Assembly (NCBI GenBank): GCA_963791265.1
Contig: CAWBSB010000014.1
Span: forward strand, 42,837-106,836
Direction of reading: 5' to 3'
DNA length: 64,000 bases
Source: an uncultured Acidobacteriota bacterium
GTDB lineage: Bacteria; Acidobacteriota; Blastocatellia; Pyrinomonadales; Pyrinomonadaceae
The position numbers and the translations under genes are program-made. The notes beneath the pieces were generated by a model. The model was not told the DNA's origin. It ran no database searches and was given only the letters and a program-made list of their open reading frames with translations. Positions 4,976-63,005 of the stretch are shown piece after piece (within the stretch, counting starts at the first letter, position 1; every line of letters starts with the position of its first letter).

Positions 4976-5092
4976 GGAAGAAATAGACAGGATTAACAGG
5001 ATTATCAAGATTAAGAAGACAGGGCACGTCAGGGCAGCTTGAATGCTTATTCTTTCATCCTGATAATCTTGTTAATCCTGTCTAATTCCTTC
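4976..5092. repeat. GACAGGAT-family element (copy 2)
   Basis: ggaagaaatagacaggattaacaggattatcaagattaagaagacaggg ... catcctgataatcttgttaatcctgtctaattccttc. Confidence 0.92.
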
Positions 5093-9330: not shown

Positions 9331-9411
9331 GGAGTCTGGAGTCTGGCAGTCTGGAGTCTGGAGTCAAAGACAAGCTATTGTTTTTGACTCCAGACCCCAG
9401 ACTTCAGACTC
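9331..9411. repeat. heptamer-repeat hairpin (GGAGTCT array / CAGACTC array)
   Basis: Left arm ggagtct ggagtct ggcagtct ggagtct ggagtc; right arm gactc cagaccc cagactt cagactc. Confidence 0.85.
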
Positions 9412-13173: not shown

Positions 13174-13338
13174 GCGGCTCTGCCGCTTGGGTGTGTGGAA
13201 AGGCTTTGCCTTTCCGTTGAGTGATCTTTATTTTGGTAAGGCTGCGCCTTACCCTTATGAGGCGTAGCCTCATAAAGACCAAATAGAACGGTCGACGGAA
13301 AGCCACAGGCTTTCCGCACAACACGGCGGCAAAGCCGC
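13174..13338. repeat. nested-palindrome element, variant (gcggc/ggaaaggc/gtaaggc/ttatgaggc hairpins)
   Basis: Mirror-ordered small hairpins: gcggctctgccgc, ggaaaggctttgcctttcc, gtaaggctgcgccttac, ttatgaggcgtagcctcataa, ggaaagccacaggctttcc, gcggcaaagccgc. Confidence 0.8.
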
Positions 13339-13442
13339 AAAAGCAATCATCGGTTTCACCTTCTAAGCGAAGAGATGCGACGTGCGCCGCCCTGTGATAT
13401 TCTCCGTCGCGTTTTTCGTTGAGCCGTCAGTTTTTAATAGGG

Positions 13443-13723: not shown

Positions 13724-13796
13724 CAGTGGTCGGTGGTCAGTGGTCAGTTAAAAAACTGATTCTTACTGACCACTGACAACCGGCCACTGGCCACTG
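13724..13796. repeat. heptamer-repeat hairpin, family B (CAGTGGT / ACCACTG)
   Basis: cagtggt cggtggt cagtggt cagttaaaa ... ctgaccactgacaaccggccactggccactg. It fills the gap from the acyP stop (13719-21) to the apt ATG (13800). Confidence 0.9.
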
Positions 13797-13799
13797 ATT

Positions 13800-14820: not shown

Positions 14821-15069
14821 TAGAAGCTGATTAAAAAAAGTCCCGTCAGGGACGACGTGACAATAGCCCAGCCATTTATGGCTGGGATAAAGTTAGAGAG
14901 TAAAACTTGAGTCCCGTAGGGACGATTGAACAAGAGCGAGTCTCTCTTCAGCCGTCCCTACGGGACTCAGATTTTATTTCCTTGTTCTATTCCCAGCGAT
15001 AAATCGCTGGGCTATTATCAATTGTCCCTGACGGGACAGAGAGCCTATAACATTGCAAACAGTTTCTTC
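14821..15069. repeat. nested-palindrome element, main family (copy 1, inverted relative to copies 3/5)
   Basis: tagaagctgatt terminus; gtcccgtcagggac; cccagccatttatggctggg; central gagtcccgtagggacg...cgtccctacgggactc; cccagcgataaatcgctggg; gtccctgacgggac. Confidence 0.9.
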
Positions 15070-17821: not shown

Positions 17822-18346
17822 TCAGCTTGAGCAATCAAGGTCACTCAAATTGATTGACGACCATTCATTTTGCGCGATAGTTGTAGCTTTGCCTCGGAAC
17901 GAGCTGAGTGACGTTCCGTTGAGCAAAAGGGTTCTGTCAGGCAAAGCCCCTTCCGCGCTGTTTGAGTCGCCGTGCGCGCTGTAGAAGTGATTGTTCACAC
18001 TGTATAAGTGCCCGTTCGCAGTGTAAAAGTCATTGTTCACGCTGTAAAAGTTCCCGTTCGCGCTGTAGAAGTCGTCGTTCACGCTGTAGAAGTCGCTGTT
18101 GACGGTGTAGAAGTTCCCGTTGACTGTGTAGAAGTGGTCGTTGACGCTGAATAAGTGAGCGTTCGCGTTGTAAAAGTGAGCGGTGCGACTGTCTGAACAG
18201 GCTGTAACTCTGTCTAAGCGGTTGTTTTGCTTGCACTTATGGGGATAAGGGTGGAATTGCGGGGAAATTAGCAGGGATGAACAGGATAAAAAGCTAAGAA
18301 AGCGGTAGTGTCCTAATTTGAAATTGGAGACTCGTAAGTATGACAC
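17822..18346 (-). CDS. hypothetical heptad-repeat protein ((V/A)N.(H/D/N)FY(S/T) x10); coding status uncertain
   Basis: Only this frame is open across the 21-bp tandem array. Repeat-to-repeat changes include synonymous third positions (ttc/ttt, gtc/gtg, agc/agt), while Asn, Phe and Tyr are conserved. GTG start 5 nt after the XRE stop. No SD, no signal peptide, no internal Met. Confidence 0.45.
   Translation of the reverse strand: MSYLRVSNFKLGHYRFLSFLSCSSLLISPQFHPYPHKCKQNNRLDRVTACSDSRTAHFYNANAHLFSVNDHFYTVNGNFYTVNSDFYSVNDDFYSANGNFYSVNNDFYTANGHLYSVNNHFYSAHGDSNSAEGALPDRTLLLNGTSLSSFRGKATTIAQNEWSSINLSDLDCSS
17978..18187. repeat. tandem array, 10 x 21 bp (consensus about GCTGTAGAAGTNNNNGTTSAC on the + strand)
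   Basis: Units counted at 17978, 17999, 18020 ... 18167, with an exact 21-nt period. Confidence 0.95.
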
Positions 18347-19002: not shown

Positions 19003-19228
19003 CTTAGAAGCTGTTTGAAAAGTCTCAGAAAGCCCCGCAGGGGCGAAATGTGAGAGCCTGTGGCAACGCCACAGGGAAAGATTCCAGTTTATTCATCAAG
19101 CCCTGAAGGGGCGGAATAAGGGTGACATCAATATTGCTGCCCTTCAGGGCTTCATCAGGTTGTCTATGTCTAGACCCAGTGGGCTATCACATCGTCGCCC
19201 CTTCGGGGCTTTTCAAACAACTTCTAAG
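19003..19228. repeat. nested-palindrome element, variant (gccccgcaggggc / cctgtggcaacgccacagg / aagccctgaaggggcgg)
   Basis: Termini cttagaagctgtttgaaaag and cttttcaaacaacttctaag. Same hairpin order as the main family, with different stem sequences. Confidence 0.85.
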
Positions 19229-19477
19229 AAGCAGTTTGAAAAGTGCCAGCTTCTCTCTGTCCCGTCAGGGACAATTGAAAATAGCCCAGCCATTCATGGC
19301 TGGGAATAGATTCGGTATATAAGAACTGAGTCCCGTAGGGACGGCTGAAATGAGCGCGGCTCTTGGTTCAGCCGTCCCTACGGGACTCAATCATTTTAGC
19401 GGCGCTGTTTCCCAGCCATCAATGGCTGGGCTATTGTCACGTCGTCCCTAACGGGACTTTTTCAATCAGCTTCTAAG
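19221..19477. repeat. nested-palindrome element, main family (copy 3), abutting the previous element
   Basis: Shares cttctaagaag with the right end of the neighbouring element. Contains gtcccgtcagggac, cccagccattcatggctggg, gagtcccgtagggacggctgaa...ttcagccgtccctacgggactc, cccagccatcaatggctggg, gtccctaacgggac and a ttcaatcagcttctaag terminus. Confidence 0.9.
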
Positions 19478-19620
19478 AAAGCAGCGAATGCTTCTTGTCT
19501 TTATCCTGTCTATCCTGTCCATCCCTGCTCGAATCCGGCTGAGTAACCACTCACGGCTTAGATTCTTCCTGAACCAGTAGATACGCGCTCTCGCCTGAGA
19601 ACCCTGCCTGATCTCGAAAG

Positions 19621-27007: not shown

Positions 27008-27125
27008 GAAGAAATAGACAGGATTAACAGGATTATCAAGATTAAGAAGACAGGGCATGTCAGGGCAGCTTGAATGCTTAATTCTTTCATCCTGATAATC
27101 TTGTTAATCCTGTCTATATTTCTTC
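27008..27125. repeat. GACAGGAT-family element (copy 3), near-identical to copy 2
   Basis: By eye it differs from 4976-5092 at only three small positions: c/t in ggcaYgtc, a 1-nt indel in gctta(a)ttc, and the last arm bases. Confidence 0.92.
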
Positions 27126-27545: not shown

Positions 27546-27567
27546 CTCAGCTTATAGCCACGCAATC

Positions 27568-27789
27568 GTCTTTGACCCTGAAAGGGTCACATACAATAGC
27601 CGGGGGCAGAGCGTAGCGTCGCCCCCGGTACTCCATGGAAAATGATTCCCGACCCTGAAGGGGTCGCATATTCAACATTGGATATACGACCCCTTCAGGG
27701 TCGAAATCTTTGCTCCTGCTGTTTCCGGGGGCGACGCGCGCACGCGCTTGCCCCCGGCTATTATATATGACCCTTTCAGGGTCAAAGAC
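27568..27789. repeat. nested-palindrome element, variant (gaccctgaaagggtc / ccgggggc...gcccccgg / cgaccctgaaggggtcg)
   Basis: Terminal gtctttgaccc...gggtcaaagac. Keeps the acaatagcc / ggctattat linkers of the main family, but the stems are different sequences. Confidence 0.85.
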
Positions 27790-28003: not shown

Positions 28004-28939
28004 ATGGGCAAGCGAAACAAGATTACTGTAGTTGGCGCGGGCAACGTCGGCGCGACCGCCGCGCACTGGTTGGCGAGCAAGGAACTCGGCGATGTCGTGC
28101 TGGTTGACATCGTCGAAGGTATGCCACAGGGCAAGGCTCTAGACCTGGCGCAGGCCGCCCCCATCGAAGGCTTTGACGCGCGACTCGTCGGCTCGACCAG
28201 CGACTACTCGCTGACGGCGAACTCCGATGTCGTCATCATCACTTCGGGGCTGGCGCGAAAGCCCGGCATGAGCCGCGACGACCTGTTGAAGACTAACGCC
28301 GGTATTGTTTCGAGCGTCGTTGACGAAGTGGTGAAATACTCACCCGACTCGATTTTGATTATCGTCTCGAATCCGCTCGACGCCATGTGTCAGGTGGCAT
28401 ACAAACGCTCAGGCTTTCCCAAGCATCGCGTTCTCGGTATGGCGGGCGTGCTCGATTCGGCGCGCATGCGCTGCTTCCTTGCCGAAGCTCTCGATGTGTC
28501 AGTTGAGAACGTGACGGCATTCGTGCTTGGTGGGCACGGCGACACGATGGTTCCTTTGACGCGCTATTCCACCTGCGCCGGAATCCCTGTCACAGAACTG
28601 CTGCCGAAAGAACAACTGGACGCGATTGTGAAGCGCACAGCCGGTGGCGGAGCAGAAATCGTCGCGCTCCTCAAAACCGGGTCAGCTTACTACGCACCGT
28701 CTGCGGCAGCCGTCGAGATGACTGAAAGCATTCTCAAGGACAAGAAAAAGATTCTGCCCTGCGCCGCCTATCTCGAAGGCGAGTACGGCATCAACGGCCT
28801 CTACGTCGGCGTGCCCTGCAAACTCGGCGCACGCGGCCTCGAACAGATCATCGAGATTAACCTGCTGGCCGAAGAGCGCATCGCCCTGCAAAAGAGCGCG
28901 GCGGCGGTTCAGGAACTCATTGACGTGCTGGGAATCTGA
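28004..28939 (+). CDS. mdh: malate dehydrogenase (LDH-like family)
   Basis: [18 protein letters not shown] Rossmann motif and the IVSNPLDAM and GGHGDTMVP motifs. aaaggaa SD before the ATG at 28004. Confidence 0.92.
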
Positions 28940-28941
28940 AG

Positions 28942-29030
28942 AAGGAAAAATTAAAAAGGTAAAAGGCAACAGCCCCGGAGGAGAACAGCCCCTTCGGGGC
29001 TGTTGCCTTTTACCATTCTACTTTTTCCTT
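28942..29030. terminator. long hairpin between convergent genes (bidirectional terminator candidate)
   Basis: aaggaaaaattaaaaaggtaaaaggcaacagcccc pairs with ggggctgttgccttttaccattctactttttcctt. A/T runs flank it on both sides. Confidence 0.7.
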
Positions 29031-29035
29031 GACTG

Positions 29036-32450: not shown

Positions 32451-32618
32451 AGAAGTAGACAGGATTAACAGGATTAGCAGGATTAAGAAAACCAGATAAG
32501 TTAAATGAAGCCCGTGCATCAATCCGCCGCCGTAGCGGCAACGCTGCACACTATTCATTTAGCCTGATGCTTCTTCCCTTGACCCTGTGCATCTTGTTAA
32601 TCTCGGTCTATTGCTTCT
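32451..32618. repeat. GACAGGAT-family element (copy 4, larger diverged loop)
   Basis: agaagtagacaggattaacaggattagcaggattaagaaa ... catcttgttaatctcggtctattgcttct. Confidence 0.8.
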
Positions 32619-36813: not shown

Positions 36814-37061
36814 AGAAAACACTCCTTCGCCCGAAGGCTCTTCAAACGAGCACTGAGAAAGCTTCAACGAGGCGGGATGATTTAAGATTGCGCCGAACGC
36901 CGGAAATTATATGACTTGGCGGACGACCCGTGCAACCACATACCGCCTCCTCTTTCGACATGTATCCTCCCGCCTCTCCTTGGCACCATCAATGATAGCC
37001 GCCCATTCATATAAGGTAAAATGAAAAATCTTGCGCTTCTTGTTCAGAAATACTTATAATT

Positions 37062-37150
37062 CAGTGGTCAGTGGTCAGTAGTCGGTGGTCAGTTAAAAGC
37101 AAAACGCTTTTGTTCTTAACTGACCACTGACCACTGACCACTGACCACTG
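37062..37150. repeat. heptamer-repeat hairpin, family B
   Basis: cagtggt cagtggt cagtagt cggtggt cagttaaaag ... cttaac tgaccac tgaccac tgaccac tgaccac tg. The LysR ATG follows 4 nt later. Confidence 0.9.
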
Positions 37151-37154
37151 ATTC

Positions 37155-38045
37155 ATGCAGATTGAGACGCTCAAAATCTTTTGTGATCTGGTCGAGACGC
37201 AGAGTTTCTCGCAGGCGGCGGAGCGGAATTTCGTGACGCAGTCGGCGGTCAGCCAGCAGGTGCGCGGGCTGGAAGAGAAGTTCAAGCGTCGCCTGTTGGA
37301 GCGCGTGCGCGGGCGGCGCGAGGTGCGCGTGACGGATGCCGGACGGAGTTTTTACGAAGAGAGCCGGAGCGTATTGGCCGCTTATGGTGGCTTGCAGGAG
37401 CGCATGCGTAGCCTCGATGGAGCGGTGAGCGGGACGGTGCGTGTGGCGACGGTTTACAGCATCGGCCTGCACGAGTTGCCGCCCGTCGTGCGTCGCTTCA
37501 TGGCGCTTTATCCGGCAGCGAAGATTGATCTCGAATACAGCCGCACGACGCGCATCGTGCGTGATGTGTTGAGCGGCGCGATTGAGCTTGGCATCGTCGC
37601 TTACCCGGAAAAGCGTCGTGGATTGACCATCACGCCTCTGCCCGGCGACCGTCTCGTTCTCATCTGTCCGCCATCGCATCCTCTGGCGGCGCGAAAGAAA
37701 GTTAAAGCCGCAGAACTCGGCGGGCAGGACTTCGTGCATTTTGAGCGCGACATCCCGACGCGCCGCGCGACGGATCGCATCTTCAAGGCGCATGGTGTGG
37801 CGGTTCATCGCGTCGCAGAGTTTGATAACATCGAGACGATCAAGCGCGCCGTCGAGGTCGGCTTCGGGCTAGGGATAGTTCCGCGCCCAAGCGTCCTGGA
37901 TGAGCAAAGGAGCGGTCAACTGGCGGTCGTCGCACTGGCCGAACCCGAATGGACGCGCACCGTCGGCATCATCCACAGAAGCGACCGCACGCTCGGCATC
38001 GCCGCGCGGAAGTTTATCGAATTGCTGAAGAGCAGTGATAAGTGA
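37155..38045 (+). CDS. LysR family transcriptional regulator
   Basis: N-terminal HTH (FCDLVETQSFSQAAERNFVTQSAVSQQVRGLE) plus a LysR substrate-binding-like C-terminus. Confidence 0.88.
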   Translation: MQIETLKIFCDLVETQSFSQAAERNFVTQSAVSQQVRGLEEKFKRRLLERVRGRREVRVTDAGRSFYEESRSVLAAYGGLQERMRSLDGAVSGTVRVATVYSIGLHELPPVVRRFMALYPAAKIDLEYSRTTRIVRDVLSGAIELGIVAYPEKRRGLTITPLPGDRLVLICPPSHPLAARKKVKAAELGGQDFVHFERDIPTRRATDRIFKAHGVAVHRVAEFDNIETIKRAVEVGFGLGIVPRPSVLDEQRSGQLAVVALAEPEWTRTVGIIHRSDRTLGIAARKFIELLKSSDK

Positions 38046-38117
38046 TGGGTGATAGGTGATAAGAAAGAACGGTTGTTTTCTCTTATTACCTATCACCTAT
38101 CACTTATCACCCATCAC
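38035..38117. repeat. heptamer-repeat hairpin, family A (GTGATRG / CYATCAC)
   Basis: gtgataa gtgatgg gtgatag gtgataa gaaa ... cttatta cctatca cctatca cttatca cccatcac. The LysR stop TGA (38043-45) lies inside the left arm. Confidence 0.9.
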
Positions 38118-39550: not shown

Positions 39551-39660
39551 GAAGAATTTAGACAGGATTTACAGGATATACAGGATTAAAAAGAGATAAG
39601 AATCAGTGCTACGCTTTTCTCTTCATGTTCATCTTGTTAATCCTGTCTAAATTCTCTTCC
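39551..39660. repeat. GACAGGAT-family element (copy 5)
   Basis: gaagaatttagacaggatttacaggatatacaggattaaaaag ... catcttgttaatcctgtctaaattctcttcc. Confidence 0.85.
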
Positions 39661-42177: not shown

Positions 42178-42316
42178 GAAGGATGAGGGATGAACAGCAG
42201 GAGTCAGCACACAGGAGACAGGAGACAGAGTAGAACCAAAAGCGGTTTCCGCCTCTTCATTCTGACTCCTGACTCCTGAATTCTGGATTCTGTTTTTCTT
42301 CATCCCTCATCCCTTC
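42178..42316. repeat. heptamer-repeat hairpin (GGATGAG outer, AGGAGAC/CTGACTC inner)
   Basis: Outer stem gaaggatgagggatgaa / ttcatccctcatcccttc. Inner caggagtcag...aggagac aggagac versus ctgactc ctgactc ctg. Confidence 0.85.
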
Positions 42317-42327
42317 GCTCTCCTCCC

Positions 42328-44757
42328 TTATTTTCCCGGCTCAAGCACGAGCGTTGCTCTGGTTGCGCTCATGACCGCCGCTTTGTTGAAGGGAAAGGCG
42401 CGCGGCGTAGTGTTGCGCCAGTCTTCGAGTTGATCTTTCCAGTAGGGACTGGAGGGTAAACCGGACTCGCCGAGCGTGATGCCGTGTTGCGTTCTGTCCC
42501 AGTCGCCGGGGTCGGCGATGAAGCGCATGGAAACGTTTCTGCCAACGTTGACGGTGCCGCCGCTGCCGTTTTGTGGAAACGGAGGGATAGCAAACTGCTG
42601 GCCGATGAGCGGCACAGCGGCCAGTGGATGAGGGAAACGCACCTGCGCGTTCTGTCCCCATGTCCATTTCGATTCATCTTCTCCGAACCGTTTTGCCAGC
42701 GTCTCTCGCCCCGACCGTTCGCAGGCGCGCAGCATCTCCGCGTAGTCTTTGAACTCTTTGGGCAGCCACTCAGTCGGCCTCTCTGTGATGATGCGGTCAA
42801 TGAGCGTGTCGCGATTAGGCCAGGTGTAGCTCTTCGCCAGTTCAGCGCCGAGCGCCGCAGTGAAGATACGGCTGCTGAATTCGGCACGCATCACGGCTGC
42901 CAGCAAGGCCGGGCGCGAATCCGCGTTCATGCGGCCATCCCAAGCCTCAAGAAGCTGAATGGTCTCGCGCAACTTGCCGTCGCTCGCACTGGTCGCCTGT
43001 CCGCGCGCGAGCTTGACGAACTCGCGCGCGAAGGTTGCCATAGAAATCGAATGAGTGTCGCCCTGAATGGCGCGGAAATCTTCGATTGTCAGTTTGGACT
43101 TGGCTTGCAGGAGATCAAGGATGCGCCGCGCGCGATAGGGCGCAGGCCAGAGGTGCGTGAGAAAGTATGGATAGTCGCGCCCGACGATGCGCTGGTTGGC
43201 TGTGACGATAATCCCTGACGGTGGATCGAAAAGATGCGGCAGCTTGTCGTAGGGAATAAAGCCTGTCCATTCACCTGCATCAGTTGCACCATCGTAAGGA
43301 ACGTTGCCATCGCCGCTCTTTCTGATGGGCACGCGCCCCGCCGCGTAATAGCCTATGTGACCGTCCACGTCCGCATAGACCATATTCTGCATCGGCCCCG
43401 TATAGCTGCTGAGAGCCGCGACATACTCCTTCCAGTTGCGCGCACGATTGAGCGTCTGAAAGCCTGCGGCGTCATTCAGTTTCGGATCGAGCGCCGTCCA
43501 GCGCAGCGCATATCGTTTACCGTTCTTCTCAAGAACAATCGGCCCATGCCGCGTGACCGTGACATCGAACGGCACAAGCTCGGTTGATGAATCGAGAAAG
43601 CCCTTGCGGACTTTAATCTCTTCACGGCGCACCACAGCTTCGCGCCAGCCCGCAGGCGTCATGTATTTGCCTGGGTTCTCCTTGTCGAAGGTTTCGGCAT
43701 AAAGGTCTTGCACGTCAGGGCCAACGTTGGTAAAGCCCCACGCGATGTGCTCGTTGTGGCCGATGACGATGCCCGGCAAGCCGGGCGAAGTGACACCCGC
43801 GACGCGCAAACCGGGCGCGCTCAGGTGCATCATGTACCAGATGGAAGGCGCAGAAGCGCCGAGGTGCGGGTCATTGGCGAGCAAGGGTTTGCCGGAAGCT
43901 GTGCGCTTGCCTGAGACGACCCAGTTATTGCTCGCCGCGCGGTCTTCGGCGAAGAGTCCGAGTCGCTCGAATGAACGCGCCATGTTGTTTTCAATCTGCG
44001 CGAGCGTTTGAAGAGTTTCGAGACGGTTCAAGGACTCAGGCCGGGGCGCTAAGGCCGCAGCTTTCCTGCGCGCATTGTCTGTGCCGACGACCAGCACGTC
44101 GAGCGGGGAAGTTTCGATGAGCAGCGCCTCGCGTTTATCGGCTGGAAGCAGGGGCAGCCCTTCCTGCATGGCGATGTCGGTCGGCCAGCTCGTGTTGAGA
44201 GCTTCGCCGAAATTTTTGATGATGAGCAGCGAATCTGCCGGAGTCCAGGGGCGCGGCTTGAATTGAAGAATACGAAACTCCGGCGGCCATGATTTTTCAT
44301 CGAGCGATGAGACGAAGGCGTTGACGCCTTGCGCGTAAGATTCAAGTTGTGCGCGAGCCTGTGGCGGGGCTTGCGCTATTTCGGCCTCGACGACTTGAGC
44401 AAAACCATAAGTGCGATGGCGCTTGTCTTCCTCAAGCGCGTCGCGCCCCAGAATCTCAGCCAACTCGCCGCGCGCAAAGCGTCGCCCCAGTTCCATCTGC
44501 CACAAACGATCACTCGCCGTGACATAGCCCTGCGCGAAATAGAGATCCGCTTCGTTGGCGGCTTCGATGTAAGGAATGCCGCGCTCGTCGCGCCGGACGG
44601 TGACGCTGGCGCGCAGCCCCGCGAGTTTCAACGTCTGTGTGGCTGTTTGTGCGGCAGCAGGCGCTGCTTGTTGCGCGGAAGCGCGAGCAAGCGGCAGAAA
44701 TGTTAGAGACAGGGAAAGCGTCAGAAGCAGCGTGAGAACTACAAGTGGTTTTTTCAT
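42328..44757 (-). CDS. penicillin acylase family Ntn-hydrolase (possible acyl-homoserine-lactone/penicillin amidase)
   Basis: Signal peptide. The SNNWVVSGKRTASGKPLLANDPHL motif carries the nucleophile Ser of the beta subunit. 809 aa. Confidence 0.85.
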   Translation of the reverse strand: MKKPLVVLTLLLTLSLSLTFLPLARASAQQAAPAAAQTATQTLKLAGLRASVTVRRDERGIPYIEAANEADLYFAQGYVTASDRLWQMELGRRFARGELAEILGRDALEEDKRHRTYGFAQVVEAEIAQAPPQARAQLESYAQGVNAFVSSLDEKSWPPEFRILQFKPRPWTPADSLLIIKNFGEALNTSWPTDIAMQEGLPLLPADKREALLIETSPLDVLVVGTDNARRKAAALAPRPESLNRLETLQTLAQIENNMARSFERLGLFAEDRAASNNWVVSGKRTASGKPLLANDPHLGASAPSIWYMMHLSAPGLRVAGVTSPGLPGIVIGHNEHIAWGFTNVGPDVQDLYAETFDKENPGKYMTPAGWREAVVRREEIKVRKGFLDSSTELVPFDVTVTRHGPIVLEKNGKRYALRWTALDPKLNDAAGFQTLNRARNWKEYVAALSSYTGPMQNMVYADVDGHIGYYAAGRVPIRKSGDGNVPYDGATDAGEWTGFIPYDKLPHLFDPPSGIIVTANQRIVGRDYPYFLTHLWPAPYRARRILDLLQAKSKLTIEDFRAIQGDTHSISMATFAREFVKLARGQATSASDGKLRETIQLLEAWDGRMNADSRPALLAAVMRAEFSSRIFTAALGAELAKSYTWPNRDTLIDRIITERPTEWLPKEFKDYAEMLRACERSGRETLAKRFGEDESKWTWGQNAQVRFPHPLAAVPLIGQQFAIPPFPQNGSGGTVNVGRNVSMRFIADPGDWDRTQHGITLGESGLPSSPYWKDQLEDWRNTTPRAFPFNKAAVMSATRATLVLEPGK

Positions 44758-47498: not shown

Positions 47499-47568
47499 GT
47501 GATAGGTGATAGGTGATGGATGATAAGAGAAGGCGTTTTCCTATCACCTATCACTTATCACCTATCAC
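47499..47568. repeat. heptamer-repeat hairpin, family A
   Basis: gtgatag gtgatag gtgatgg atgataa gagaa ... cctatca cctatca cttatca cctatcac. Fills the interval from the stop (47492-94) to the ATG (47576). Confidence 0.9.
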
Positions 47569-48907: not shown

Positions 48908-48982
48908 GTGATAGGTGATGGGTGATACGTGATAAGACAGAACGCGTTTTTCTCTTATCACCTATCACCTATTACCTATCAC
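48908..48982. repeat. heptamer-repeat hairpin, family A (between convergent genes)
   Basis: gtgatag gtgatgg gtgatac gtgataa gacag ... cttatca cctatca cctatta cctatcac. Confidence 0.9.
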
Positions 48983-49863: not shown

Positions 49864-50436
49864 TTGCGAGCCGAAGAAGTCATCGAAAGATTCAGGCGAA
49901 CGGGCGCGTTGCTCGAAGGCCACTTTGTTTTGTCGAGCGGATTGCACAGCACAAACTATTTGCAGTGCGCGCTGCTGCTGCAACATCCGGCGGAAGCCAC
50001 GCGGTTCGGCAGCGCCCTTGCCGAACAATTCCGCGATGAAAGAATCGAGACAGTCGCCGCGCCCGCGATTGGTGGATTGATAATTGGCTACGAAGTCGCA
50101 CGCTCGCTCGGCGCGCGATTCATCTGGACCGAGCGCGACGCTGGCCAGATGACACTGCGTCGCGGCTTCACCGTCCGCTCAGGCGAGAGCGTGCTTGTCG
50201 TCGAAGATGTCATCACTACGGGAGGCTCTACGCGCGAGACGGTCGAAACACTACGCAATGCCGGTGCACGAGTCGTCGGCGCGGCTTCCATCATTGATCG
50301 TTCTTCGGGGCGCGCGGATGTCGGCGTCCCGCGCGTCGCCCTCGCCACTCTGGATGTGCCTGCGGTCGCCCCCGCCGCCTGCGAAGCCTGCGCGCGCGGC
50401 GAAGAGGCCATCAAACCGGGAAGCAGGAAGCCGTGA
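49864..50436 (+). CDS. pyrE: orotate phosphoribosyltransferase
   Basis: LLEGHFVLSSGLHS and the PRPP motif VLVVEDVITTGGSTRET. TTG start. Confidence 0.9.
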   Translation: MRAEEVIERFRRTGALLEGHFVLSSGLHSTNYLQCALLLQHPAEATRFGSALAEQFRDERIETVAAPAIGGLIIGYEVARSLGARFIWTERDAGQMTLRRGFTVRSGESVLVVEDVITTGGSTRETVETLRNAGARVVGAASIIDRSSGRADVGVPRVALATLDVPAVAPAACEACARGEEAIKPGSRKP

Positions 50437-50505
50437 TGGGTGATGGGTGATAGGTGATAAGAGAAACGCTTTTACCTATCACCTATCACCTATCACCTAT
50501 TACCT
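50433..50505. repeat. heptamer-repeat hairpin, family A
   Basis: gtgatgg gtgatgg gtgatag gtgataa gagaaac ... cctatca cctatca cctatca cctatta cct. The pyrE TGA (50434-36) lies inside the left arm. The truA ATG (50506) is the next base after the right arm. Confidence 0.92.
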
Positions 50506-51264
50506 ATGAATTATAAGTTGACGCTTCAGTACGACGGCACGGATTTTCATGGCTGGCAGGTGCAGGGTGCGGAGCGCACGGTGCAGGGCGAGTTGGCGCG
50601 TGTGCTGACGCTGCTTGAGGGAAGCGCGGTTGTGGTGCATGGGTCGGGGCGGACGGATGCGGGCGTTCATGCAGAGGGGCAGGTGGCGAGCGTGCAGCTT
50701 AATCGTGAGTTCGCGCCCGATAAGCTGCTGAGCGCGATTAACGGAAATCTGCCGCGCGATGTGCGCGTCATAGAGGCTGCGATAGTTCCCGATGATTTTC
50801 ATGCTCGTTATTCGGCGCGTGGAAAATCTTACGTCTATAGAATCTTCAATGCGCCCGTCATGTCGCCCTTCTGGAGTCGTTATGCGTTGCACGAAGCGCG
50901 GCGGCTGGACATCGAACGCATGCGAAAGGCCGCACGGCTCTTTCTGGGCGAGCATGATTGGACTGCCTTTTCTGCGGCGCAGTCGGACACAAAGACGCGC
51001 GTCAGAACTATCACCGGCCTTGAAGTGACGGAGTTGATGGACGAACGAGGGCGCGGGCGGCTCATTGAAATCAGGCCAAGCGCCGACGGATTCCTGCGCT
51101 ACATGGTGCGCTCCATCGCGGGCACGCTGCTCAGCATCGGTCGCGGGGAAATGAAAGAGGAACTCATCACGCGCGCGATAAACACCCGCGACCGCTCGCT
51201 CGTCGGCGCGACCGCCCCCGCACACGGCCTGACACTGGTCAGCGTAGATTACGAAGAGCAGTGA
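50506..51264 (+). CDS. truA: tRNA pseudouridine(38-40) synthase
   Basis: LQYDGTDFHGWQVQ and GSGRTDAGVHA (catalytic Asp). Confidence 0.92.
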   Translation: MNYKLTLQYDGTDFHGWQVQGAERTVQGELARVLTLLEGSAVVVHGSGRTDAGVHAEGQVASVQLNREFAPDKLLSAINGNLPRDVRVIEAAIVPDDFHARYSARGKSYVYRIFNAPVMSPFWSRYALHEARRLDIERMRKAARLFLGEHDWTAFSAAQSDTKTRVRTITGLEVTELMDERGRGRLIEIRPSADGFLRYMVRSIAGTLLSIGRGEMKEELITRAINTRDRSLVGATAPAHGLTLVSVDYEEQ

Positions 51265-51296
51265 TAGGTGATGGGTGATAGGTGATAAGAGAAAAC
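51261..51296. repeat. family A heptamer array, left arm, separated from its partner by an inserted element
   Basis: gtgatag gtgatgg gtgatag gtgataa gagaaaac. The truA TGA (51262-64) lies inside it. Confidence 0.85.
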
Positions 51297-51520
51297 AGTT
51301 CTTTCTGTCCCGTCAGGGACATTTGATGATAGCCCAGCCATTCATGGCTGGGTAACAGAACGGTAGAGATGATTAAGTCCCGTAGGGACGACCGAAGGGA
51401 AGCGAGCCTCTGTTCAGTCGTCCCTACGGGATTCAACCTATAAAACCACGTTTGATTCCCAGCAATAAATTGCTGGGCTATTGTCAGCCGTCCCTGACGG
51501 GACTTTTCGATCAGCTTCTA
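51297..51520. repeat. nested-palindrome element, main family (copy 5), inserted inside a family A hairpin
   Basis: gtcccgtcagggac, cccagccattcatggctggg, aagtcccgtagggacg...cgtccctacgggatt, cccagcaataaattgctggg, gtccctgacgggac and a tcgatcagcttcta terminus. Confidence 0.9.
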
Positions 51521-51522
51521 AA

Positions 51523-51599
51523 TGGTAGGTAATGAGAGAAACGCTCGTTCCTATCACCCATCACTTATCACCTATCACCTATCACCCATCACCCATCAC
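51523..51599. repeat. family A hairpin remainder (degenerate left arm plus long right arm)
   Basis: tggtaggtaatgagagaaacgctcgtt then cctatca cccatca cttatca cctatca cctatca cccatca cccatcac. Confidence 0.85.
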
Positions 51600-52484: not shown

Positions 52485-52562
52485 GTGATAGGTGATGGGT
52501 GATAGGTGATAAGAGAAACGCTTTTTCTTATCACCTACCACCTATCACCTATCACCTATCAC
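52485..52562. repeat. heptamer-repeat hairpin, family A
   Basis: gtgatag gtgatgg gtgatag gtgataa gagaaac ... cttatca cctacca cctatca cctatca cctatcac. Lies between the uppS stop (52475-77) and the cdsA ATG (52567). Confidence 0.92.
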
Positions 52563-54770: not shown

Positions 54771-54912
54771 CAGCCCCGGAGGGGCGACAGAAATTCAAGA
54801 TACGTTGTAACGCATATTGGACTTCTGTCGCCCCTTCGGGGCTCGATAATGATGTTTGTGCTGTGACCCCGGGCTAGCGCCCGGGGCTACAGTCTGCCGC
54901 CCCTGACGGGGC
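54771..54912. repeat. nested-palindrome element, partial variant (centre plus right arm)
   Basis: cagccccggaggggcgacagaa ... ttctgtcgccccttcggggct, ccccgggctagcgcccgggg and gcccctgacggggc. Confidence 0.75.
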
Positions 54913-55056: not shown

Positions 55057-56538
55057 ATGACGGACGATAACAAGACGGCCAAACCGAAGCTACCATTATC
55101 GCGCATCGTCGTTCCGGCGCTCGTCGCGCTGGCAGTCATTTTCTGGTACAAGGGTTATATTGATGTAAAAAGTATCCTTGCCTTCATTTTCATCCTGGGC
55201 GCGGCGGTCGTCATCCACGAGTTTGGCCATTTTATCGTCGCTAAGATGCTGAAGATTCGCGTCGAGACGTTCTCCGTAGGCTTCGGCCCGCGCATCTGGG
55301 GACGAAAATGGGGCACAACCGATTATCGGCTGTCGGCAGTTCCGCTCGGCGGCTACGTCAAACTCGGCGGCGATGAATCGAACGCCCCCATCGAAGGCGA
55401 GGGCGCGTCAGACATTCCCGAAAAAGAGCAGTTTAATTTGCGCCCGCGCTGGCAGAAGTTTCTGGTCGCGGTGGCTGGGCCGGTGATGAATATTCTAACG
55501 GCGCTGGCCATTCCTTTCATCGGCGGGTTGATGTATGGCGTGCCTGTTCCTCCGGCTCCGGTTGTCAAAGAGATCAGACAGGGCGGCGCGGCTGAGGCGG
55601 CAGGGCTGCGTGTCGGTGATCGCATCGTCGTCTTCAACGGCTATGAGCATCCGAAATGGGATCGCATCAGGGGCGACGTTCTGCTGTCGCCGGAAAGACC
55701 GCTGCCTGTAGTCGTGGAGCGCGAAGGGCAGCGCGTCAATCTCACGCTGACGCCCGCGAAAAGGGTGGAAAGCGGAGAGATTATGGGCGACATGGGCTTC
55801 GATCCGGATTACGGTGATCTGCCAATCATCGTTGCTGGCGTGACGCAGGATTCGCCCGCCGCAAAATCAGGCTTGCAGCGGGGTGATCACCTCATCAGTA
55901 TCGGCGGCGAGGCCGTGAGCAGCAGCCAGCAGATAGTAAATTACATCAAGGCGCATCCGACAGAGCCAATTCAGTTCGTGATTGAGCGCGGAGGGCAGCG
56001 CAAAGAAGTGACCGCGACGGGACGCATGGCGGGCGGAAGACTGGGTCTCTCGCCGGATGAAGAGTTGCCGCGCGAACACGTCGGTACACTTGCGACCGCT
56101 CGTTACGCATTGGATTTCAATCTTGAAATCCTGCGTCTTACGGGCAAGGCTCTGGGGCAACTCTTTAGCGGAGAACGCTCCGCGCGCAATACTGTTTCGG
56201 GGCCGCTTGGGATTTATGAAGCAGCCTCGAACGCCGTTAACGAAGCGGGCTGGGATGGACTCTTCGCCATGCTGGGATTCCTGAGCTTGAGTCTGGGCGT
56301 TTTCAATTTGCTGCCAATCCCTGTGCTTGACGGTGGCGCAATCTTCCTGCTGCTCGTCGAGGCTGTCATGGCTCTGGGCGGGTGGAAATTGTCCATGCGC
56401 GTGCGCGAGCGAATCCAGCAGGTCGGCTTCGTCATGCTGCTTCTCTTGATGGGATTCGTCATCACCAACGATTTGCTCAAAAAAGTCTCGCGCAGCCAGG
56501 AAGAGACGAAGCCTCCGGCGGCGACGCAACAGAAATAA
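55057..56538 (+). CDS. rseP: RIP site-2 metalloprotease
   Basis: HEFGH zinc motif in TM1, two PDZ-like segments, and NLLPIPVLDGG. Confidence 0.92.
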   Translation: MTDDNKTAKPKLPLSRIVVPALVALAVIFWYKGYIDVKSILAFIFILGAAVVIHEFGHFIVAKMLKIRVETFSVGFGPRIWGRKWGTTDYRLSAVPLGGYVKLGGDESNAPIEGEGASDIPEKEQFNLRPRWQKFLVAVAGPVMNILTALAIPFIGGLMYGVPVPPAPVVKEIRQGGAAEAAGLRVGDRIVVFNGYEHPKWDRIRGDVLLSPERPLPVVVEREGQRVNLTLTPAKRVESGEIMGDMGFDPDYGDLPIIVAGVTQDSPAAKSGLQRGDHLISIGGEAVSSSQQIVNYIKAHPTEPIQFVIERGGQRKEVTATGRMAGGRLGLSPDEELPREHVGTLATARYALDFNLEILRLTGKALGQLFSGERSARNTVSGPLGIYEAASNAVNEAGWDGLFAMLGFLSLSLGVFNLLPIPVLDGGAIFLLLVEAVMALGGWKLSMRVRERIQQVGFVMLLLLMGFVITNDLLKKVSRSQEETKPPAATQQK

Positions 56539-56605
56539 GTTACGGGTTACGAGTTTCGAGTTGCGGATTAAGCAGACTCGTAACCCGTAACTCGAAACTC
56601 GAAAC
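56539..56605. repeat. heptamer-repeat hairpin (GTTACGR / CGTAACY, with GTTTCGA / TCGAAAC)
   Basis: gttacgg gttacga gtttcga gttgcgg ... actcgta acccgta actcgaa actcgaa ac. Starts on the base after the rseP TAA. Confidence 0.9.
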
Positions 56606-56618
56606 TAAAGGCAGTTGA

Positions 56619-57734: not shown

Positions 57735-57957
57735 GTAAGTTTTTAAGCCCCGTTAGGGGCGCGTGATAATAGCCCAGCAATTTATTGCTGGGAAACAGAT
57801 TGGTAAAAATGATTGAGTCCCGTAGGGACGGCTGAATCAAGAGGCTCTTCTCTTCAGCCGTCCCTACGGGACTCAATATTTGTTCTCTGGTTTTATCCCC
57901 AGCGATAAATCGCTGGGCTATTATCAATCGTCCCTGACGGGACTTCTTGAGCTTAAT
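57735..57957. repeat. nested-palindrome element, main family (copy 7)
   Basis: gccccgttaggggc (left) versus gtccctgacgggac (right). Also cccagcaatttattgctggg, gagtcccgtagggacggctgaa...ttcagccgtccctacgggactc and cccagcgataaatcgctggg. Confidence 0.9.
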
Positions 57958-58014
57958 AAACTTGAATACGGGCTAAATGTGTAGTTGAAGCCTATATTCA
58001 CTCGCAATCACAGG

Positions 58015-58043
58015 TTGACTCTGCAACTGCGCGGTGATATTAA
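58015..58043 (+). promoter_or_regulatory. sigma70-like promoter TTGACT-17-TATTAA
   Basis: -35 at 58015-20 and -10 at 58038-43, about 200 nt upstream of the 58246 start. Confidence 0.45.
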
Positions 58044-58245
58044 CTCCGCACCGCCAGAAGGGAAACGGGACTTTAGGCTTCCAATCCCTCCTGCCAGCGA
58101 TCATTCGTCGAATTTCTTTCCCTCGCGTCAAAGCCTCGCTCGATGTCAACTCCTCGCCGCGTAAAGTCAGACACGATGCTCTTCCCGGTTGCGCGCAAAG
58201 CTCGCGGATAGTTTTCCGAAGAGAGATGAGAAAGAGGTGATTGAC

Positions 58246-59868
58246 GTGAGAACGAAATCCCGAAACGTGGTAGCCAGCGTGAGCTCGATTCTACTTCTCC
58301 TTTTCGCCAGCCCGCTTCAAATCTGCTTCCAGGCAAAAGCGCAGGCGCAGCAGCAGAATGCGCCGCAGCCTGTCAGCCTGAAAGTCAATACCAAAAATAT
58401 CGGCGGCGCTTTTGAACTGACCGCCGAGACGCTCCTCTACGGCGATGTGAAGGTCTACCTGCCGGATGACATGGCGGCAGGCGATACGATTTCAGGGACG
58501 GTCGTCGCCGAGCCGAAGGGCAACACCGAAGAAGAGCGAGCTAAGAATCAGGACACTCTGGAAGGATTGGTGGTGGAGATAGGCGATCAGAAAGTTGACG
58601 CGTCGAAGGGGGCTTTTAAGTGGGTTGTCCCTAATGCTCCAATAAAACTTATCAGGATCATAGAAGTCGCGTCCGGCAGGGAATTAGCGAAAACGCCAGT
58701 TTCCTTGATTACGCCGATGATAAAACCTCCTACTTCTCAAACTTCCCAGACGAACAAATTTCAGCTTCCGGCCATCGGACAGCAGGGACGCGCTGTTGAG
58801 ATTCCAGGGCCTTTCGACGGAGATTTTTCCAACACCACGCTTAATTGGAAAAGCGCGACCCAGAATGCGGAGAGCGCCGAAGGCGGATTCAGATTGCTCG
58901 CAGAGTCTCCGCGCAAGGGAGTTTTCAGAAGCCCCACTAACGTCACCGGACAGGTTGAGATAAACCTCAAGGAAGGCAGCGCCGAGACGAAAGGCACGTA
59001 TCGAAGCGTCGGTGTGAGCTTGAGCGCGCCGAAGACGAATCTACTCAAGGGCGAGCGCACGACCGTGACCGTCATGGTGGTCGGACTCGAAGGAATCAAA
59101 CAAACCATTCCGCTGCTGCTTATCACGCAGGGCGTCGTCCAGATGGATGGCGGCAACAGTCAATTCATCCCAATCCCAGCATCGGGCGTGACACCGGCTG
59201 GGATTTTCACGATGACGCGAACGCTGACGGGTCAACAGTCCGGAGGTTTTTCCGTGACGGCGACAATCGTCGTTAAGCCTTTGGAGACCTGTTTGCAGGA
59301 TGATAAAAACGGAGGAACTTTTCTTTTTAACTCTGCCGCCGGGGATTACATCTTCACGCAGCCCAATGGTGCGACCATAGATGGCAAAGGCACGCTGGCA
59401 AAGAAAGGCTGCATCCTGACATTGACGGACAACCGGCTTGACCGCAGGGTGATGGGCAGGCTCGATTCATGCGAAAACAAAGGCAACGCGACCATTGAGC
59501 TTGATTCGCCGAAAGCGAAGTTTAATGTCACGGACAAGAATACGACGGACAACACCTGCGCTACGTGCGCTGAAAGGTTCAGCCGCTTGAGTCGGCAGGC
59601 GGCAGTCCGCGCCAGCGAGATATTTAATCAGGATTACTTCGTTGTGCTTCTCGTTGTAGATCATCTCGTCAACGAGGTCGCGGGCAATGAGAATGCCGAA
59701 GCCGCCGGGACGCATGCCCTGTTCCTCGCGCACGCGCGCGTGCTGCAAGGGGTCGCTTTCAGGGTTGAGAAAAGCCGCTATCGCTCCTTCGTCACGGTAC
59801 AGCGATTCGATGGTGAAGCCTTCGCCGGGGTCTTTGATGCGATAGAGAATGATGCGGGGCGAGCGTAA
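58246..59868 (+). CDS. secreted hypothetical protein (3' end uncertain)
   Basis: GTG at 58246 after a gaaagagg SD. Signal peptide (VASVSSILLLLFASPLQICFQAKAQA). The last roughly 100 codons are antisense to a conserved domain of the convergent gene. Confidence 0.55.
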   Translation: MRTKSRNVVASVSSILLLLFASPLQICFQAKAQAQQQNAPQPVSLKVNTKNIGGAFELTAETLLYGDVKVYLPDDMAAGDTISGTVVAEPKGNTEEERAKNQDTLEGLVVEIGDQKVDASKGAFKWVVPNAPIKLIRIIEVASGRELAKTPVSLITPMIKPPTSQTSQTNKFQLPAIGQQGRAVEIPGPFDGDFSNTTLNWKSATQNAESAEGGFRLLAESPRKGVFRSPTNVTGQVEINLKEGSAETKGTYRSVGVSLSAPKTNLLKGERTTVTVMVVGLEGIKQTIPLLLITQGVVQMDGGNSQFIPIPASGVTPAGIFTMTRTLTGQQSGGFSVTATIVVKPLETCLQDDKNGGTFLFNSAAGDYIFTQPNGATIDGKGTLAKKGCILTLTDNRLDRRVMGRLDSCENKGNATIELDSPKAKFNVTDKNTTDNTCATCAERFSRLSRQAAVRASEIFNQDYFVVLLVVDHLVNEVAGNENAEAAGTHALFLAHARVLQGVAFRVEKSRYRSFVTVQRFDGEAFAGVFDAIENDAGRA

Positions 59869-62907: not shown

Positions 62908-63005
62908 GAGTCAGGAGTCAGGAGTCGAGAGTCAGAAGTCAAATGGTCAAAAGCATTTCTTGTCTTTTGACTTCAGACTCCTGACTTCTGATTCCTGGAT
63001 TCCAG
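62908..63005. repeat. heptamer-repeat hairpin (GAGTCAG / CTGACTY)
   Basis: gagtcag gagtcag gagtcga gagtcag aagtcaa atggtca ... cttttga cttcaga ctcctga cttctga ttcctgg attcc. Confidence 0.9.

Follow-up and report, generated by a model that had tools for sequence, protein, structure and literature searches.

The 64,000-nucleotide (nt) stretch analyzed here (the window; positions 42,837 to 106,836 of contig CAWBSB010000014.1 from an uncultured Acidobacteriota bacterium) contains eight nested palindromes of ~200 to 250 bp. These are very likely nonautonomous DNA elements resembling REPINs (paired repetitive extragenic palindromic [REP] sequences) or miniature inverted-repeat transposable elements (MITEs), that is, derived by internal deletion from a small REPtron-like unit that carries a Y1/HUH transposase gene. 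All eight are intergenic, and two of them abut at positions 19003 to 19479. The first-pass annotation of the window had placed elements at 13174, 14821, 19003, 19221, 27568, 51297, 54771, and 57735, and the described element was found at each of these positions. It had called them either a MITE/REP-like family or a structured RNA; the REP-like alternative is supported by the Y1 gene found within the same palindrome in relatives, and the RNA alternative is not favored.

The elements are designated here G (13174 to 13339), A (14821 to 15069), B1 (19003 to 19228), B2 (19222 to 19479), C (27567 to 27789), D (51292 to 51521), E (54772 to 54912), and F (57736 to 57966). Their shared layout is an outer inverted repeat, hairpin 1, an AATAG linker, hairpin 2, and a long central hairpin, followed by the mirror image of these modules. 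The proposal of one layout for all eight holds for the order of the modules but not for the AATAGCC linker, which is missing from element G, a member of a sister family. In the consensus of the half-element, hairpin 1 and the next six bases form a unit termed U (GTCCC-GTA-GGGAC-GRYTGA), which recurs as one half of the central hairpin. Each half is therefore composed of U, AATAG, hairpin 2, a spacer, and U, amounting to three hairpins of two types. The window copies have a loop of 15 to 20 nt where the full unit has its gene, so that U and its inverted counterpart U' form the long central hairpin. In the abutting pair, hairpin 1 has 5 bp and hairpin 2 has 8 bp, each arm of the central hairpins is a small palindrome in its own right, and there are inner inverted repeats of 31, 32, 24, 18, and 14 nt. 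Hairpin 2 plus the linker (CCCAGC-N8-GCTGGGCTATT, up to three mismatches) had 9 matches in the window versus 0.15 expected, the outer repeat AGAAGCTGTTTGAAAA had 10 versus 0.48 expected, and GTCCCKNNNGGGAC had 14 versus 1.6 expected. Single-strand folding gave -84.6 kcal/mol for positions 19222 to 19479 (z = -14.9) and -76.3 kcal/mol for positions 57735 to 57960 (z = -14.3).

The complete unit consists of hairpin 1, (A/G)TAG, hairpin 2, a spacer, U, a Y1 transposase gene, U', hairpin 2', CTATT, and hairpin 1'. At three loci chosen by DNA pattern (L020, L031, and L112), the arms are ~560 to 580 nt apart and the central loop holds an open reading frame (ORF) of 150 to 161 amino acids (aa) that matches Pfam Y1_Tnp (PF01797; E = 1e-26 to 3e-21). 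Three more Y1 genes adjoining arms were identified by tblastn (L019, L057, and L064). In a reverse test, six homologues were selected by protein similarity alone from those on long contigs (P0120, P0091, P0006, P0110, P0070, and P0101), and all six were flanked by inverted arms and U halves, with fixed arm and U distances and a different gene neighborhood each time. The first pass had suggested a search for an IS200/IS605-type TnpA or a RAYT gene; an IS200-like Y1 gene was found in the central loop at three DNA-chosen and six of six protein-chosen loci, and a Y1 gene flanked by inverted arms is present at nine independent loci (L020, L031, L112, L197, L199, L201/L202, L203, L204/L205, and L206). 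Gene-bearing units are rare, accounting for 6 of the 116 arm-selected loci listed, and each Y1 protein occurs on one to four contigs. In the window, transposase genes are outnumbered by elements: eight elements with 13 arms are present, and tblastn detected no Y1 gene. At two loci (L201:9675-10695 and L204:4620-5770), the arms are multiplied in tandem, with three to five per side and a period of ~70 to 76 nt; these tandem arms resemble the tandem arrays of Lentisphaera araneosa in the seed alignment of the Acido-Lenti-1 RNA family (see below). At another locus (L199:9862-10546), the Y1 unit with its arms separates the genes encoding the large and the small glutamate synthase subunit, indicating that the unit can sit in an operon-like gene pair.

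A profile search with the Y1 protein retrieved at least 8,000 homologues, many of which are labeled RayT by JGI and IS200/IS605 by NCBI. The alignment contains the motifs EDHVH, WQEGY, and YIENQAEHH, and the catalytic residues H55, H57, Y115, and Q119 are invariant. Scores with the NCBIfam IS200 model (NF033573; cutoff, 55) were 67.7, 56.5, and 50.9 bits, so that two of the three proteins pass. The best solved relatives were the TnpA proteins of ISDra2 and IS608 (E of ~1e-9), and the same search returned no RAYT structure at an E value of ≤0.01. Quentin et al. (2018, PMC6006769) characterize subclass 1.2 of these transposases by the motifs DH[IV]H, WQ, and Y---Q--HH, a length of ~148 aa, and a low copy number, and they record it as "REP: no," with mostly cyanobacterial and Bacteroidetes members; the Y motif of their class 2 TnpA-REP is YIxxNP (Table 1 in PMC6006769). 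By motif comparison only, the Y1 protein described here fits subclass 1.2.

Each arm of the elements (hairpin 2, GGCTATT, and hairpin 1) matches Rfam family RF01687, "Acido-Lenti-1 RNA." Four arms in the window scored 38.2 to 43.3 bits, above the gathering threshold of 37 bits, and five more scored 31 to 36 bits; other Rfam matches on the window hairpins (microRNA models and others) were far below threshold and were rejected. Minus-strand matches come from left arms and plus-strand matches from right arms, so that complete elements carry the motif on both strands. Read on the strand opposite to that of the Rfam model, hairpin 2 follows ATAG in ~90% of the arms and GTAG in the rest, a tag similar but not identical to the GT[AG]G of REPs. 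Rfam describes Acido-Lenti-1 as a 46-nt small RNA with no function assigned. Weinberg et al. (2010, PMC2864571) reported the motif from Acidobacteria and Lentisphaerae, sometimes near group II introns, and rated it a probable RNA; the seed alignment also includes Planctomycetes and Geobacter.

An exact-pattern scan of one genome per species yielded at least 116 loci in Acidobacteriota, Planctomycetota, Verrucomicrobiota, and Sumerlaeota. Judged by record titles, the matches listed comprise ~50 from Acidobacteriota, 43 from Planctomycetota, 17 from Verrucomicrobiota, and 3 from Sumerlaeota, and none of the 116 pattern-selected loci listed is syntenic with the window. The pattern was absent from viral contigs. 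A strict scan identified 49 complete elements, including four from the window, with an identical order of modules. R1, a covariance model built from the arms in this analysis, detected 177 arms in 100 loci; among the best 150 of these arms, 90 are in convergent (-/+) pairs, and 39 of these pairs are spaced 81 to 125 nt apart. In the window, R1 found nine strong arms, weak matches for the variants at 19003 and 27568, and nothing elsewhere.

The covariation of the stems is strong. In 137 distinct arms, selected with a pattern that put no constraint on the two inner pairs of the hairpin 2 stem, each of these pairs was 97% Watson-Crick with three to four pair types, the loop was T[GA]AA in 87%, and the free 3' half of hairpin 1 paired fully in 124. 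The compensatory variants C..G, G..C, and A..T reported earlier for hairpin 2 are present. In the model alignment, 99.3% of the cells were paired and 8 of the 13 pairs were changed on both sides; 177 cells had changes on both sides, versus 45.7 ± 4.7 in shuffles and no more than 8 in slid controls. G-U pairs made up 3 of 1,913 cells, a signal more like that of DNA than of RNA, and the mismatches in the Rfam orientation (six G.T and 13 A.C) are too few to decide the strand. In 23 of the 49 complete elements, the two arms carry different self-complementary alleles of hairpin 2; the local hairpins rather than the long palindrome are therefore maintained, in agreement with the earlier suggestion that the small hairpins, and not just the palindrome, are kept. 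Hairpin-templated correction of quasi-palindromes could be an alternative source of paired changes; selection and templated correction alike imply that the hairpins extrude in vivo.

Three of the elements are inside a conserved truA-uppS-cdsA-dxr-rseP-ispG cluster. The IspG of the window has its best database matches, with up to 96% identity, among proteins of Pyrinomonadaceae/Blastocatellia, placing the window in this group. Among 34 ispG-syntenic loci from relatives, R1 detected one arm in total. The comparison for presence or absence revealed that L207, L117, and L209 (94%, 96%, and 90% IspG identity, respectively) lack the three cluster elements. The spacers of L207 are 140, 116, and 22 nt, versus 421, 376, and ~1,745 nt in the window. 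The truA-uppS spacer, which holds element D in the window, has no element in L207 or L209, and at the position of element F there is a plain terminator in L117 and a 22-nt spacer in L207. In L209, hairpins made of heptamer repeats are intact in the truA-uppS and dxr-rseP spacers, where the window has elements inserted; the same genome carries a Y1 unit and a gene-less element elsewhere (L197).

The match to RF01687 could mean that the arms encode a functional small RNA or yield processed parts of one and that the palindrome is a by-product. Four arms exceed the Rfam gathering score, the covariation is strong, the motif is conserved across phyla and carries the probable-RNA rating of Weinberg et al. 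(2010), and the element-bearing spacers of the uppS-cdsA-dxr-rseP-ispG cluster look transcribed. We nevertheless regard an RNA gene as very improbable: the motif occurs on both strands of every complete element, arms flank a DNA transposase gene at nine loci, G-U pairs are few and G.T is not in excess over A.C in the RNA orientation, single arms have no associated promoter or terminator, and copies are absent at orthologous sites in relatives. Because the motif is the arm of a transposase-bearing unit, Acido-Lenti-1 probably represents the DNA end of a transposon and not a gene for an RNA. The movement of such a unit by a different enzyme, with the elements being classical MITEs served by a DDE transposase that reads the outer terminal inverted repeat (C)TTAGAAGCTGTTTGAAAAG, appears extremely unlikely. 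A ~20-bp outer repeat does bound four window copies and several copies in other Acidobacteriota, the elements at 19003 and 19222 overlap in TTCTAAG, and the TTAG...CTAA ends could mask a TA or TTA duplication. However, the outer repeat is confined to lineages (Phycisphaerae copies have GTTACCCACATYTTTG, the copy at 57736 has its own repeat, and many copies have none), and the conserved core is the hairpin set. Target duplication is not consistent, Y1 is the only type of gene found inside full-length units, and no DDE transposase gene was found linked to the elements.

It is also possible to regard the elements as structural sites maintained by the host (bidirectional terminators, mRNA stabilizers, or sites for nucleoid proteins) that are immobile today, with the Y1 protein as a domesticated partner or unrelated. 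All copies are intergenic, several begin 9 to 33 nt past a stop codon, L117 has an ordinary terminator in place of element F, and the copies are old, with 81% to 86% identity. Hairpin 1 followed by a T-run fits the terminator pattern at 14853, 19444, 51490, and 54899, but terminator-like sites in the window scan are in total not above the shuffle expectation, and element C is located between divergent gene starts. Since many copies end in hairpin 1 and a T-run, the elements may also act, tentatively and as a secondary effect, as terminators in either direction. Host maintenance fits such a secondary role yet does not explain the origin of the elements; it also leaves the conserved RTAG/TCAR tags and the enclosed transposase unexplained, and orthologous spacers are empty in close relatives. 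We therefore consider it an improbable account of the elements as a whole.

Several results weigh against regarding the window elements as deleted copies of a Y1 transposase unit. No Y1 gene was detected by tblastn in the window. The transposase is IS200-like and not a canonical RAYT, scoring 22 to 25 bits with the NCBIfam REP_Tyr_transpos model (NF047646) against a cutoff of 80, and no member of subclass 1.2 is known to act on DNA. No exact empty-site junction was found among the relatives, which are only 70% to 82% identical in DNA, so that junctions are not alignable base by base. No consistent target sequence was found either, and the ends beyond hairpin 1 vary between lineages. Target duplications, which the first-pass annotation had proposed to look for, were not consistent at the window copies; an ~18-nt imperfect direct repeat flanks element D (51273 to 51296 and 51522 to 51542; TAGGTGATAAGAGAAAAC ... 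TAGGTAATGAGAGAAAC) and is unexpected for HUH transposition. Finally, the window copies are 81% to 86% identical to each other, no closer than they are to copies from other phyla (76% to 86%). There is therefore no sign of recent bursts, and the similarity stems from constraint and not from recent copying; judged by their divergence, the copies are old.

For the elements as internally deleted Y1 units, we infer a single-strand cut-and-join mechanism modeled on the TnpA proteins of IS608 and ISDra2 and on E. coli TnpA-REP. The small hairpins would extrude when the DNA is single stranded, for example, at a replication fork, and a Y1/HUH transposase encoded elsewhere in the genome would recognize the tagged hairpins. 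Two recognition tags are postulated, each on the 5' side of its hairpin: RTAG for hairpin 2 on one strand and TCAR for the U hairpin on the opposite strand. The enzyme would cut and rejoin single-stranded DNA and so move or copy the element without target duplication, preferably into intergenic hairpin or terminator regions. The stems would then drift while staying paired and the tags and loops would stay fixed, resulting in compensatory changes.

With less assurance, but still as the more probable case, we propose that subclass 1.2 Y1 transposases drive a multiphylum REPIN-like system with a near-invariant recognition module of two hairpin types, of which the Acido-Lenti-1 motifs are the single-stranded DNA transposon ends. 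The system would extend over Acidobacteriota, Planctomycetota, Verrucomicrobiota, and Sumerlaeota and probably Lentisphaerae. The Y1 proteins are ~60% to 65% identical and thus less conserved than the arms, which, if the proposal is true, implies an unusually rigid protein-DNA code common to these phyla. In the literature, we found no paper linking Acido-Lenti-1 to a transposase. The proposal would provide a likely identity for a so-called sRNA family of Rfam, an orphan since 2010, and a DNA substrate for a Y1 subclass reported without one, and it would extend REPIN/RAYT-type biology to soil and aquatic phyla in which it is barely described. Short oligonucleotides and a 150-aa protein would make the system a test case for the reading of hairpins by HUH enzymes when stems vary but tags are fixed. 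In addition, the elements fill spacers of core operons and can be expected to confuse searches for noncoding RNAs and terminators, as well as genome assembly, in Acidobacteriota and Planctomycetes-Verrucomicrobia-Chlamydiae (PVC) genomes.

As in the REP/REPIN-RAYT system, or REPtron (Nunvar 2010; Bertels and Rainey 2011, PMC3116915; Ton-Hoang 2012; Quentin 2018, PMC6006769), the hairpins here are short, tagged, and paired in inverted doublets able to fold into one long hairpin; copies are numerous and intergenic; a Y1/HUH gene lies between inverted hairpins, of which there may be several on each side; hairpin alleles occur in both homodimers and heterodimers; and target duplication is absent. 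Unlike in REPtrons, whose transposase is a class 2 TnpA-REP, the transposase is IS200-like with the motifs of class 1, subclass 1.2; the tag is mostly ATAG instead of the GT[AG]G of REPs; and each half has three hairpins of two types instead of one REP. In addition, arms from four phyla are almost identical in sequence, in contrast to the usual lineage specificity of REPINs. The ~150-aa Y1 transposase and the hairpins beside the gene ends resemble those of IS200/IS605, but the ends here are inverted complements, whereas the left- and right-end hairpins of IS200/IS605 are on the same strand and the entire IS occurs in multiple near-identical copies; tnpB is absent, and among the arm-selected loci, copies lacking the gene far outnumber those bearing it. 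RF01687 has the same two-hairpin motif and GGCUA linker and occurs in the same phyla, but in contrast to its description, the motif here is one arm of a ~200-bp palindromic DNA element and of a transposase-bearing unit. The TIRYTs/TIRtrons of Di Nocera et al. (2013, PMC3733652) are likewise Y1 genes of Acidobacteria and other phyla with inverted-repeat flanks able to form repeat families. TIRYTs belong mostly to subclass 2.1 (Quentin 2018), are longer (~238 aa), and have C-terminal helix-turn-helix domains and GGGG[AT][CG]A[CG] repeats; none of these traits was seen here. There may also be some overlap between the arms and the GTAG-REP families cataloged in PVC genomes by Di Nocera et al. (2013). 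Being long palindromic intergenic repeats, the elements also recall ERIC/IRU, Correia/NEMIS, and YPAL, from which the nested mini-hairpins and the Y1 association distinguish them. Those families are imperfect palindromes of 100 to 250 bp in transcribed spacers, and some affect RNA stability or termination; they are not known to have nested tagged mini-hairpins or an associated Y1 transposase, and Correia elements have TA duplications.

The abutting elements B1 and B2 overlap in TTCTAAG, yielding the shared junction cttctaagaag that had been described in the first pass. B1 is a variant bounded by CTTAGAAGCTGTTTGAAAAG and its complement, which form the 20-nt outer inverted repeat (19003 to 19022 and 19209 to 19228; 95% complementary). 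Its hairpin 1 is gccccgcaggggc (19032 to 19044), hairpin 2 is cctgtggc..gccacagg (19057 to 19075), and the central hairpin spans 19095 to 19155. The right arm (19175 to 19209) is decayed, including its hairpin 2. RF01687 scored 36.2 bits on the minus strand at 19031 to 19075 and 22.9 bits at 19175 to 19210, and R1 matched weakly. B2 belongs to the main family and has outer arms of 21 nt (19222 to 19242 and 19459 to 19479; 86% complementary). Its left arm (19259 to 19304) comprises hairpin 1 (19259 to 19272), the AATAG linker, and hairpin 2 (19285 to 19304), and it is followed by the central hairpin (19328 to 19388) and the right arm (19411 to 19457); R1 scores were 71.2 and 59.0 bits.

The other main-family members are elements A, D, and F; element E is a partial copy. 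Element A consists of a left arm (14840 to 14886), a central hairpin (14909 to 14969), a right arm (14992 to 15037), and an outer repeat (14821 to 14839 and 15052 to 15069); its arms, both outside the seed alignment, scored 61.9 and 71.6 bits with R1, and it is 83% identical over 251 nt to an element of a different Acidobacteriota genome (L015). Element D has a left arm at 51307 to 51352, a central hairpin at ~51375 to 51435, a right arm at 51458 to 51503, and a right outer repeat at 51504 to 51521 (Rfam, 42.8 bits, above the gathering score; R1, 66.9 and 70.5 bits), and it lies in the loop of a hairpin of GGTGATA-type heptamer repeats (arms, 51261 to 51287 and 51550 to 51599). The copy at 54771 (element E), annotated as partial in the first pass too, has a central hairpin (54772 to 54843; agccccggaggggcgacagaa ... 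ttctgtcgccccttcggggct) and a right arm (54867 to 54912) and no left arm; it scored 38.9 bits with Rfam, above the gathering score, and 53.3 bits with R1. Element F, the copy at 57735 in the first pass, starts 13 nt past the ispG stop codon and carries its own outer repeat (taagtttttaa/ttaataaactt). Hairpin 1 is of the gcccc type in its left arm (57747 to 57792) and of the gtccc type in its right arm (57898 to 57943), just as had been noted, and the central hairpin is at 57815 to 57874; both arms exceed the Rfam gathering score (43.3 and 38.2 bits). Between element F and a convergent response-regulator gene are ~1.5 kb (57967 to 59466) that include an ORF (58189 to 59868; 559 aa, no Pfam match) and that have no counterpart in L207 (22-nt spacer) or L117 (~157 nt), indicating an insertion or deletion beside the element.

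Element C, a variant, is divergent but retains the common layout and the AATAGCC linker. Its hairpin 1 is gaccctgaaagggtc (27574 to 27588; right hairpin 1, 27769 to 27783), hairpin 2 is ggggc..gcccc with a long loop, and the central hairpin contains gaccc-type sub-hairpins. Aligned as an inverted repeat, its two halves share 81% identity over 238 nt, the element is 70% to 71% identical to L028:5734-5980, and both arms are weak matches to R1 (E = 0.006). Element G, which starts 9 nt past a stop codon and is not detected by R1, has the same nested layout with hairpin 1 gcggc-N3-gccgc, hairpin 2 ggaaagSc-N3-gSctttcc, and a GCAC linker. Partial homologues of the same layout are found at L121:5170-5320 and L128:4155-4320, in relatives without the main family.

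Most intergenic spacers of the window contain another kind of hairpin, with arms of three to seven tandem 7-nt units or of a 9-nt unit, ACAGGATTA. Heptamer hairpins are located at 9331 to 9411, 13724 to 13797, 37061 to 37151, 38034 to 38117, 42198 to 42292, 47499 to 47568, 48908 to 48982, 50433 to 50507, 52485 to 52562, 56538 to 56606, and 62908 to 62997, and 9-mers are located at 713 to 740, 4987 to 5019, 27018 to 27050, 32459 to 32486, 39562 to 39587, and 19502 to 19524. The heptamer varies by locus (GGTGATA, CAGTGGT, GAGTCAG, AGTTACG, and others) and the loop is similar (TAAGAGAAACGCTTTT); heptamer hairpins with other units occur in the relatives L117 and L209 and in the flanks of L033, L102, L110, and L116. 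Such repeats bring to mind the STRR heptamers of cyanobacteria, but here they form hairpins; these may serve as native terminators and as preferred insertion sites of the elements. In the spacer after a malate/lactate dehydrogenase gene (28919 to 29033), a hairpin (ggtaaaaggcaac/gttgccttttacc) surrounds a single U-like hairpin, AGCCCCTTCGGGGCT, plus one-half of a second and is possibly a decayed element. Just upstream of the elements at 19003 to 19479, a minus-strand ORF for a repeat protein (17822 to 18346; 174 aa, no Pfam match) contains about ten tandem 21-nt repeats (17970 to 18179), which also scored at periods of 42 and 63.

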